Of a stretch of 64,000 bases of DNA, positions 23,777 to 33,356 are shown one piece after another; within the stretch, counting starts at the first letter, position 1, and each line of letters opens with the position of its first letter. The stretch is from Candidatus Binatia bacterium (GTDB lineage: Bacteria; Desulfobacterota; Binatia; UBA9968; JAJDTQ01): NCBI GenBank assembly GCA_963666515.2, contig OY762897.2, positions 1,184,001-1,248,000 of the forward strand, in the 5' to 3' direction. The notes below the pieces were generated by a model. The model saw nothing but the letters and a program-made list of their open reading frames with translations, had not been told where the DNA came from and searched no databases. A program made the position numbers and the translations under genes.

Positions 23777-24337
23777 ATGGCGACCCACGATCATCATCAC
23801 CACGCGCATCACCACCACGGAGGCGGCGGCTACCGTTTCTGTCCCCGTTGTGCCGGGACGTTGACGCCGCGCGTGGTCAAGAGCAACGAGCCCAAGCGCT
23901 TGGTCTGCGAGAAGTGCTCCTTCATCTTCTACCAGGACCCCAAGGTGGTGGCCGGAACCATCTGCACCCTGGACGGCGGCGTGGTGCTGCTGCGCCGCGG
24001 CATCGAGCCGGCCATGGGGATGTGGGTCTTCCCCGGCGGCTACGTGGACCGGGGCGAGAGCACCACCGAGGCCGCGGTCCGCGAGACCTGGGAGGAGAGC
24101 AACCTGGAGGTGGCGACGCGGTCGCTCCTGGGGGTCTATTCCTACTCTGGCTCGCCCAACGTGATCATCGTCTACGTCGCCGAGGTGCTGGGAGGGACCC
24201 TGACGGCCGGGGACGAGAGCACCGAGGCCGGGACCTTTCCGCTGTCGCGGATTCCCTGGGACCATCTCGCCTTTCCCAGCACGGTGGAAGCCCTCAGGGA
24301 TTTCGAGCGTTTCTACGGGAAAGGACAACTGTGTTAA
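23777..24337 (+). CDS. NUDIX hydrolase with zinc ribbon and His-rich N-terminus
   Basis: FCPRC..CEKC, Nudix box [21 protein letters not shown]. Confidence 0.88.
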
Positions 24338-24383
24338 TGAAGAAGAGGTTCGCAGAAAATCAATTCGGAAAGGAGATTCTTTG

Positions 24384-24842
24384 ATGGCGATGCCAAACGT
24401 GGGGGAAAAGGCCCCCGAGTTCAGCCTGCCAGTCACCCGGGAAGAGAACGTGTCCCTGAGCGACTACGCGGGCAAGAAGAACGTCGTGCTGGCGTTCTAT
24501 CCGCTGGATTTCACCGGCGGCTGAAAGCAGGAATTGAGCAACTTCGAGGCTGACAAGGCCAGCTTCGAAGCCAAAGACGCTCAGGTCCTGAGCGTAAGTG
24601 TCGATTCGGTGTTCGCCCACAAGGCGTTTGCCGAGCAGATGGGCGGGATCAGCTTCCCGATGCTGTCGGACTTCTATCCCCACGGCGCGGTCTGCGAGCA
24701 GTACGACTGCCTGCGCGACCAGGGTTTTCCCAAGAGAGCTGTCTTCATCATCGACAAGCAGGGGACCGTGCGGTACTCCAAGCTCTACGAGGGCGGCATC
24801 CCGGAGAACGCGGAACTGCTGGCGGAACTCGACAAGCTGTAG
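24384..24842 (+). CDS. Peroxiredoxin (AhpC/TSA, AhpE-like), probable selenoprotein with Sec at codon 47
   Basis: SD AGGAG 24371-24375; frame [31 protein letters not shown](24522-24524)-KQELSNF.. continues into the 24534-24842 ORF; TGA occupies the PxxxTxxC cysteine position. Confidence 0.9.
24535..24583 (+). promoter_or_regulatory. Putative bacterial SECIS element
   Basis: Stem CTTCGAGGCTG (24542-24552)/CAGCTTCGAAG (24560-24570) with 7-nt loop, outer TGAGC/GCTCA pair, just 3' of the in-frame TGA. Confidence 0.65.
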
Positions 24843-24862
24843 CCGCGTTTATCGCAGAGAAT

Positions 24863-24899
24863 CGGAACAGGGGCGGCGTGTGCGTCGCCCCTGTTTCCG
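24863..24899. terminator. Hairpin between convergent genes, probable terminator
   Basis: CGGAACAGGGGCGGCG-TGTG-CGTCGCCCCTGTTTCCG. Confidence 0.6.
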
Positions 24900-24965
24900 T
24901 TTGCGGTCCGGGAATCCTTCGCCTTGCGTCGCTTCTGGCGTCGCCGGCCTCGCGTGGTGGCGGTG

Positions 24966-31818: not shown

Positions 31819-31888
31819 CTGTCTTTCATCGACCTCCACCGTGCCCATATTCATAGTCATCATGCCACTGGAGGAAGGGCATTCGGTC

Positions 31889-33028
31889 ATGATTGAATGG
31901 CTCGGCATCGGCCACCTTTTCGAGCTTTCCCGGGCGGAAGCGGTTGCGGGGCTTTTCACCCCGCTGGCGGTCTTTGCCGTATTCTTCCTGGCGCAGCTCG
32001 TGCTGCCGGGAAGGTGGGTTCCGGGCTACGTCATCAATCCGGAGACCGGCGAACCGCGCAATTACCGGCTGAACGGTCTCCTGGTCTTTTCCATCGCGGT
32101 GGTCGTGTGGGCTTTCGAGCTCACCGGGATGCCGCGTGACTGGTTCTACCGGTCCTCCATTCATTCCGTCGCCGGCGGAACGGTCTTCGCCAGCATCGTT
32201 ACCGTCATCGCGGTGTTCCGCCAGCCGCAGGGCAAGGTACGGAACCCGCTCCTGGCGCTGTGGTTCGGTCGCGCCCAGGAGCTGTCCTTCTTCAACGAAC
32301 GCTTCGACGTGAAGATGTACCTCTATGTCGTCGGCGGGACGATGTTGTCGCTCAACGCCCTGTCCGGGGCCGTGTACCACTACCAGCTCTTTGGTGAAGA
32401 CTCCAATCCGGGCGTTTTCCTGTATGCGGCGTTCTTCACGTTCTACATACTGGACTACTTCATCTTCGAGCGGGTCCAACTCTACACATATGATCTGATC
32501 CACGAGAATCTCGGCTTCAAGTTGTTCTGGGGCTGCTTCGTGGTCTACGGGTGGCTGTTCATCCTCCCGTTGTGGGGCATGGCCGCTTATCCGCACCCCG
32601 GATTCTCGCCGGCATGGACGAACGTCTGGCTCATCGGAACGGCCGCGCTGTTCCTGTTCGGCTGGGGCATCTCGCGCGGCGCCAACATGCAGAAATACAC
32701 GTTCAAGCGATGGCCCGACCGCCGGTTTCTCGGCTTCATGGAGCCCGAGTACATCGAGGCCGGCGACCGCAGGATCCTGTGCAGCGGCCTGTGGGGAGTC
32801 GCCCGCCACTTCAACTACCTGGGCGAGGGCTTCCTTGCCTTGGCCATAGCCCTGGTATTCGGCTACTTCACCAATCCGTGGGCCTGGACCTACTTCGTCT
32901 TCATCGTCTCGCTGTTCACCTACCGTCAACTCGACGACGACAAGCACTGCGCCGAGAAGTACGGCGCCGACAAGTGGGCGGAGTACCAGGCGCGGGTGAG
33001 GTACCGGATCGTTCCCGGCGTTTACTGA
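31889..33028 (+). CDS. ERG4/ERG24 family sterol reductase-like membrane protein
   Basis: Multi-TM; SGLWGVARHFNYLGE and DDKHCAEKYG..WAEYQARVRYRIVPGVY match family signatures. Confidence 0.85.
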   Translation: MIEWLGIGHLFELSRAEAVAGLFTPLAVFAVFFLAQLVLPGRWVPGYVINPETGEPRNYRLNGLLVFSIAVVVWAFELTGMPRDWFYRSSIHSVAGGTVFASIVTVIAVFRQPQGKVRNPLLALWFGRAQELSFFNERFDVKMYLYVVGGTMLSLNALSGAVYHYQLFGEDSNPGVFLYAAFFTFYILDYFIFERVQLYTYDLIHENLGFKLFWGCFVVYGWLFILPLWGMAAYPHPGFSPAWTNVWLIGTAALFLFGWGISRGANMQKYTFKRWPDRRFLGFMEPEYIEAGDRRILCSGLWGVARHFNYLGEGFLALAIALVFGYFTNPWAWTYFVFIVSLFTYRQLDDDKHCAEKYGADKWAEYQARVRYRIVPGVY

Positions 33029-33125: not shown

Positions 33126-33258
33126 CGGGATGTTGATTGCTGGCAGTCGGGTCCCGTGCAAGTGGGTCCCGCAAACCCCGTCAGGTCCGGAAGGAAGCAG
33201 CGGTAGCGGACCGCCCCTGTGCCACGGGGAAGCCTGGCTGTCGGCAATGAGCATCCCG
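33126..33258 (+). ncRNA. ffs: Signal recognition particle RNA
   Basis: Conserved TCAGGTCCGGAAGGAAGCAGC core, flanking complementary arms, position upstream of dnaX; ends approximate. Confidence 0.9.
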
Positions 33259-33356
33259 CCACGCAAGGGGCTTCGGGTGCGCAATCGCAGCGGAAAATTC
33301 ACCTCCTGACGGCGCCTCCAAGGCCCGCCGGGGACACTCGGAGCGGCCTCGACGTC

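Follow-up and report, generated by a model that had tools for sequence, protein, structure and literature searches.

A probable AhpE-like selenocysteine peroxiredoxin gene in a Candidatus Binatia bacterium and its candidate two-hairpin SECIS element

The gene described here lies in a window (the whole stretch of DNA analysed, 64,000 nucleotides) of the genome of a Candidatus Binatia bacterium, and as a whole it is best explained as encoding an AhpE-like selenocysteine peroxiredoxin (Sec-Prx) whose UGA at codon 47 would be recoded through a two-hairpin SECIS, in which a first hairpin, P1, serves as a spacer and a second one, P2, as the distal SelB site; to this whole reading we assign a probability of about 0.6. 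That it is a real selenoprotein gene with selenocysteine (Sec) at codon 47 appears, judged from sequence, nearly certain. A 152-aa Sec-Prx had been proposed in a sequence-only reading of the same DNA, and this proposal is sustained by selA, selB, selD and tRNA-Sec genes scoring over their cut-offs, by conservation of the TGA and by an mRNA hairpin that tracks TGA versus Cys at the site. The features are collected in Table 1.

Table 1. Positions of the features discussed; coordinates are those of the window unless C1 is given.
Feature	Position	Strand	Basis or remark
Shine-Dalgarno sequence AAGGAG	24370..24375	+	sequence; 8 nt 5′ of ATG
AhpE-like peroxiredoxin CDS, 152 codons (catalytic P40, T44, U47, R118)	24384..24842	+	PF00578 and AhpE matches
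In-frame TGA, codon 47, peroxidatic position, putative selenocysteine	24522..24524	+	ortholog conservation, Sec machinery
Hairpin P1 of 11 bp, spanning +18 to +46 relative to the UGA; its loop ACAAGGC lies at 28 nt	24542..24570	+	proposed spacer hairpin
Hairpin P2 of 8 bp within codons D65-V71; its loop GUC lies at 60 nt	24577..24595	+	proposed distal SelB-binding SECIS
Cys104, helix alpha4, clade-typical	24693..24695	+	C in 49/57 orthologs covering the position
Cys109, replaces V of the Y-G-V motif, clade-typical	24708..24710	+	C in 53/57 orthologs
Strong hairpin just 3′ of the stop, before the convergent YgfZ/GcvT-like gene	24863..24899	+	-35 kcal/mol, z -5.0 (24843-24905)
Likely Sec TGAs, part 1	C1 +81476, -317837, -689887, -807302, -860917, +914845, -1114737, +1444541		G[G/U]-loop hairpins
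Likely Sec TGAs, part 2	C1 -1718829, -2127487, +2384013, +3054816, -3156448, +3385692, +4473220		G[G/U]-loop hairpins

The sequence-only reading had described a good Shine-Dalgarno sequence and an ATG opening a peroxiredoxin (Prx) N-terminus, a TGA exactly at the peroxidatic position, a frame that resumes through the catalytic Arg region and an ORF track reporting only the C-terminal piece, and each of these observations was confirmed. The Shine-Dalgarno sequence and the start codon are placed as in Table 1, and all 30 ortholog loci shown have an AGGAG/GGAGG-like motif 5′ of the gene. In alignment with Mycobacterium tuberculosis AhpE, the TGA falls on the catalytic Cys. Translation of the coding sequence yields 152 residues with TGA47 as the sole internal stop, and the frame stays open to a TAG with the catalytic Arg, R118, present and invariant across 93 aligned sequences. 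The ORF list (minimum 80 aa) contains just a 102-aa piece starting at TTG 24534; likewise, the protein collection entry for the gene is a 102-aa fragment, and those of relatives are pieces of 70-105 aa or carry W at the site.

At the ortholog loci a NUDIX gene is near in 40/40 cases and a YgfZ/GcvT-like gene in 34/40, and we saw no functional link of these neighbours to the Prx gene. In the window the former encodes a NUDIX hydrolase that has a Zn-ribbon and a His-rich tail at its N-terminus (23777-24337, +), 46 nt upstream. The hairpin just 3′ of the stop codon is a possible terminator, and it was not called by the terminator scan, whose one call, on the minus strand, corresponds to P2 and was regarded as incidental; a sigma-70 promoter scan found none. 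Elsewhere in the window, at 31826-31900 and 33160-33260, a short text occurs almost identically in two opposing frames (FLPDLTGFAGPTCTG, PSGPDGVCGTHLHGTR), flanking the gene 31841-33028, and these repeats recall what we take to be duplicated SRP-RNA-like pieces before dnaX.

The read-through protein scores 131.5 bits on PF00578 (Pfam) over residues 6-131, and it is nearest to AhpE both in sequence and in structure: its best PDB sequence matches are M. tuberculosis AhpE (E 1e-29), and its AF2 model (pLDDT 97.3) gives TM values of 0.92-0.94 to AhpE at 38% identity. The active-site motif P40-L-D-F-T44-G-G-U47 conforms to the Pxxx(T/S)xxC/U pattern of the peroxiredoxin superfamily. With M. tuberculosis AhpE (Rv2238c), a 1-Cys enzyme, it shares sequence, fold, a short C-terminus (at 152 aa the C-terminal extension is absent) and the SDF(Y/W)PHG segment, and differs from it in having Sec for Cys, the PLDFTGGU loop and the extra C104 and C109. 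The reductant of the mycobacterial enzyme is mycothiol/mycoredoxin. The active-site signature of AhpE is PxAF(T/S)xxC, and a Gly before the catalytic residue is a trait of PrxQ (PMC5302317, in excerpt); since in PLDFTGGU the A is replaced by D and a Gly precedes the U, we call the protein AhpE-like only.

The Sec-Prx as a kind of protein is already known, being a listed family (Prx, PF00578, TxxU; PMC13188914, PMC1088965 and PMC1794560, all in excerpt). With the known TxxU members the present protein shares the common Prx fold, PxxxTxxU, a UGA at the peroxidatic position and a host with selA/B/C/D. In the parts of the literature covered, neither an assignment of a Sec-Prx to the AhpE subfamily nor a position for a Sec-Prx SECIS was found. 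PrxU of Eubacterium acidaminophilum, which we take to be an experimental example of a Sec-Prx, differs from the protein described here, which is AhpE-like, 152 aa long and scores 83.5 bits on the PrxU model (NF040737) against a curated cut-off of 270; no NCBIfam model was over its cut-off.

The sequence-only reading had also suggested that the CEQYDC pair, that is Cys104 and Cys109, the only Cys residues of the protein, might supply a resolving thiol, and this part did not hold. In such a scheme Cys109 (or Cys104) would resolve Sec47 as a selenenylsulfide, which would give the Prx fold a sixth resolving position. Its appeal lies in the high frequency of both residues among the orthologs (Table 1), with Cys109 present also in 76/78 truncated close homologs, and in the 37 full-length Cys-type homologs, which have Cys at neither position (A/S/G/V at 104). 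The two residues occur independently, however: 46 orthologs have both, 7 only C109, 3 only C104 and 1 neither, with about 45.6 expected to have both. By the model, moreover, 104 (alpha4) and 109 fall outside the five known Prx resolving positions (N-terminal, alpha2, alpha3, alpha5 and C-terminal; PMC4749874, in its available parts), so that the protein is neither of the 2-Cys nor of the atypical 2-Cys type, and 56/150 Sec-Prx of the distal-hairpin type described below have no Cys at all in the aligned domain. Because there is no covariation, because there are orthologs with neither residue and because no known resolving position is involved, a resolving thiol is unsupported; we regard it as doubtful and a 1-Sec cycle with an external reductant as more likely.

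The genome carries the machinery that a selenoprotein needs. The selA, selB and selD genes form one cluster (C1 4043412-4047708), all over the family cut-offs, and selD itself has an in-frame TGA (C1 4043412-4044335, -); tRNA-Sec(UCA) is also over its cut-off. Among relatives, selA and selD were found in 58/61, two of the remaining three having tRNA-Sec, and selB in 4/4 distant carriers of the gene. The same holds for the codon: an ortholog with one TGA is present in all 27 same-genus genomes and in most same-order genomes, and TGA stands at codon 47 in 59/59 distinct ortholog CDSs (at least 65% identity, codon 47 covered), so that neither chance nor sequencing error accounts for it. Thus neither a genome devoid of Sec genes nor a family in which the relatives all carry Cys, which together would have pointed to a nonsense mutation or a sequencing error, was what we found. 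On both sides of the TGA dN is far below dS in 8/8 pairwise comparisons, dS being saturated in some. Metatranscriptome contigs from relatives (85% cut-off), which as contigs cannot show transcription, span the TGA in 4/4 cases with no difference there among the matches listed; they carry no weight in the argument made here.

Bacterial SECIS elements have been reduced to a consensus rule in which the loop lies 16-37 nt after the UGA (PMC13188914, in excerpt), and the loop G is usually about 20 nt from it (PMC4605307, available parts). Unexplained exceptions to the 16-37 nt rule exist (PMC13188914, PMC10778597 and PMC12013277, in excerpt). As far as the available text of two reviews of 2025 and 2026 goes, some bacterial SECIS fail this model and distinct classes must exist, the classes themselves being left undescribed, and in one test 13% of the known genes escaped bSECISearch (PMC13188914, PMC12013277).

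Two hairpins follow the UGA in this gene. P1 (-17.1 kcal/mol, 7-nt loop, 11 bp) and P2 (-12.6 kcal/mol over 24570-24602, 3-nt loop, 8 bp) both fall within a loop of 3-9 nt, a stem of 4-16 bp and an energy of -7.5 kcal/mol or lower. The loop rule requires a G at loop position 1 or 2, mostly as N1-G[G/U]-N-N2; P2 fits it as G-GUC-C, and P1 does so only with its closing pair opened, and then as GA. In spacing, P1 at 28 nt is inside the 16-37 nt range and P2 at 60 nt is outside. No single hairpin therefore fits all the rules, because P2 fails the spacing and P1 the loop pattern. Compared to the bSECISearch consensus (PMC13188914, in excerpt), P2 is alike in its 3-nt loop, 8-bp stem, N1-G-U-N-N2 apex and energy below -7.5 kcal/mol, and differs in that its loop lies 60 and not 16-37 nt from the UGA, with a separate hairpin between. 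Its apex is also similar to the minimal SECIS of E. coli shown in PMC3834832 (in excerpt), whereas the E. coli fdhF SECIS is, in the available parts of PMC4513850, one extended stem-loop whose lower part unwinds, and here there are two hairpins in tandem.

With the first 11 nt past the UGA held unpaired, the pair probabilities of P1 are at least 0.95, and six of its seven outer pairs are kept in 46/46 distinct ortholog 60-mers, the seventh in 45. In this gene 43% of the synonymous-codon samples fold as well as P1, which is not beyond the null, and the peptide is enough to account for it. P2 is strongly constrained at its synonymous positions: 59/59 orthologs use GCT for Ala66, GCT making up 3% of the Ala codons genome-wide, and Ser70 is AGC and Gln67 CAG in 59/59, while the wobble base of the P2 loop varies freely; among the other A/G/P/T/V/S/L/R columns examined, none keeps one and the same codon throughout. 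As a lone SECIS, P1 was demoted, since the synonymous null was not significant here and P2 emerged. Rfam over 24300-24950 gave no score near a gathering threshold.

For a survey of hairpin type against TGA or Cys, the homolog set was widened with order, phylum, Burkholderiales, Myxococcales and metagenome sequences, and 350 loci were reduced to 287 distinct TxxC/U genes (189 TGA, 98 Cys) by dropping 12 loci without TxxC/U (mostly UxxC Prx-like or indel-shifted), duplicates and genes with <90 nt after the codon. Among these sequences, which are related to one another, the +60 hairpin was found in 151/189 TGA genes versus 2/98 Cys genes. The TGA genes comprised 150 with the distal hairpin only, a class defined partly by the P2 loop, 21 with a proximal SECIS only, 1 with both and 17 with neither, and a proximal SECIS was seen in 1 of the 98 Cys genes. 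The +60 hairpin and a normal proximal SECIS nearly exclude each other: 21/22 TGA genes with an ordinary proximal SECIS have no P2. When only peptides capable of encoding the stem were compared, it was present in 141/154 Sec genes that lack a proximal SECIS and in 0/19 Cys genes, where codon usage alone would give 6.5 and 0.6, respectively, and the matched-peptide control thinned to <75% identity gave 38/45 Sec versus 0/10 Cys. For the 54 Sec genes left by thinning to <75% identity, 92% of the cells pair in register, compared to 22-39% when slid, and P2 shows compensatory double changes across clades (T-A/C-G, G-C/A-T, C-G/T-A). Folding of the region +10 to +51 against synonymous nulls gave a mean z of -2.59 for the 150 distal genes and of -0.37 for the 98 Cys genes. 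These results demonstrate RNA-level selection on both hairpins, linked to the TGA.

The interval between the UGA and P2 holds a hairpin of variable sequence in 150/150 distal-only genes, which starts at +10 to +18 and is joined to P2 by a linker of median 3 and maximum 6 nt. With this hairpin collapsed, the effective distance of the P2 loop has a median of 24 nt (range 20-33) and is within 16-37 nt in 150/150. The loop sequence of P2 is not independent evidence, since its GU coincides with a conserved Val (U+62 in 49/49 Cys genes). One locus, L203, keeps the P2 stem with an AUU loop, and L061, L064, L066 and L171 have a stem mismatch. In a quick tree, genes of the distal type fall interspersed among Cys clades, with 16 changes of which at least 7 are forced by starred branches; the phylogenetically independent-pairs test on it, underpowered with 3 and 5 pairs, gave a median p of 0.5 and never the opposite direction.

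Same-order genomes (e.g., loci L058-L076 and L205-L224) have up to 11 Prx-like matches each, many with TGA, in clades with WTPT-U, LDFTP-U, FTFV-U and W-U-P-x-C motifs, and proximal and distal SECIS occur within one genome. A strict proximal or +60 hairpin is lacking in the TGA-Prx L215, L217-L219, L223, L300, L336, L148, L191 and L224, several of which have a one-codon insertion.

Loops of the G[G/U] type are also found in the other 16 likely Sec genes picked out in the genome, at +16 to +21 in 15 of them and at +33 in selD, a pattern that P2 fits and P1 (GA/AC) does not. At least 15 are further likely selenoprotein genes (Table 1), for a total of about 17 with the Sec-Prx gene and selD; their motifs are presumably AhpD-like, GrdB-like, rhodanese, UGSC, OsmC-like (2), Bcp, deiodinase-like, SQR, DsbA and ArsC-like. 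Four more TGAs on C1 (-3615578, -3514720, +4307767 and +2782644) are coding-like on both sides with no SECIS-like hairpin; +2782644 looks like a broken transposase, and for the other three, adjacent genes or nonsense changes are possible explanations. The selD genes of the order (L004, L359-L386) have a 5-bp hairpin at +11 to +23 followed by a SECIS-like GUN-loop hairpin at about +33, in 24/28 distinct sequences by MFE fold, so arranged that the selD signal may be a miniature of the two-hairpin design.

The roles of the two hairpins could also be exchanged, with P1 as the SelB-binding SECIS of a Sec-Prx, normally spaced and with an atypical loop starting with GA, and P2 as an accessory acting by pausing the ribosome, by stacking on P1 or by helping refolding. 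P1 has the spacing and the energy for such a function; in 42 representatives its loop is at +25 to +31 in 42/42, does not exceed 9 nt in 41/42 and has a G among its first two bases in 21/42, and L203 has a P2 without the loop G. Yet G[G/U] is found in only 4/42 of these P1 loops, which vary widely in sequence and length, whereas the genome's other Sec genes use G[G/U] loops. The fixed length, the register and the near-absolute synonymous constraint belong to P2 and not to P1, and the near absence of P2 from genes with an ordinary proximal SECIS argues in the same direction. This exchange of roles is in our view unlikely. A single composite SelB-binding surface made by P1 and P2, through a coaxial stack or through contacts to different winged-helix domains, would agree with the short linker and with the conserved positions of both hairpins, but P1 has no conserved sequence, its internal loops vary and the first hairpin of selD is just 5 bp, which makes such a surface quite improbable.

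The reading of UGA47 as something other than Sec, whether it is decoded as Cys or Trp or lies in a nonsense pseudogene, in a split gene or in a misassembly, is highly improbable, since TGA is the commonest stop of the genome (897/1686 long coding ORFs), the only UCA-anticodon tRNA among the 51 tRNAs found is tRNA-Sec, both halves of the gene are under purifying selection and Trp cannot serve as the peroxidatic nucleophile. It could draw on five database entries with W at the site (P0002-P0005, P0069), which lie on 1-2 kb contigs and most plausibly reflect the genetic code chosen by the gene caller, and on the third relative missing selA and selD, the same-order genome G029 (240 contigs, 100% marker completeness), which has several TGA-containing Prx genes and in which selA, selB, selD and tRNA-Sec were sought across the 240 contigs and none was found, probably an assembly gap.

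For the two-hairpin Sec-Prx, the mechanism that we infer, from selenium incorporation, SelB binding to P2 and the spacer role of P1 to the substrate and the reductant, would run as follows. UGA47 would be recoded by SelB and Sec-tRNA via the two-hairpin element. The ribosome covers about 11 nt (PMC4513850, in excerpt), and with the UGA in the A site about 11 nt would be within the mRNA channel. P1 would fold out from +18 to +46 as a spacer, bringing P2, with its G-GUN-C apical loop at nominal +60, effectively to about 33 nt from the UGA here and to 20-33 nt across the family, and SelB would bind P2 at this shortened distance. In the protein, by analogy with the family, Sec47 held by Pro40, Thr44 and Arg118 would attack the hydroperoxide, and family chemistry suggests that an external thiol or redoxin most likely reduces the selenenic acid, in the manner of a 1-Cys Prx.

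Our literature search found no published account of a bacterial SECIS that is distal or made of two hairpins; supplements and key primary papers were outside the search and a prior description is possible. The same search found no paper on Binatia and selenocysteine. The enzyme itself is an ordinary, mis-annotated selenoprotein, and the signal matters more. On balance we favour the existence of a two-hairpin class of SECIS, widespread and undescribed, in which SelB would be able to act from a loop 60 nt past the UGA because the spacer between them can fold into a hairpin. If this is true, the class serves most of the AhpE-like Sec-Prx sampled (Binatia and its phylum, Burkholderiales, Myxococcales and many metagenomes), with a miniature in selD, and the real rule would be the effective (folded) distance and not the linear one. 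The candidate class is concrete, phylogenetically broad and directly testable in a reporter. If it is right, the search rules for SECIS would change and many missed selenoprotein genes would be recovered, and the residues that directly follow Sec (helix alpha2 in this case) would be freed from a fixed SelB-binding sequence, which is relevant also to the design of recombinant selenoproteins.
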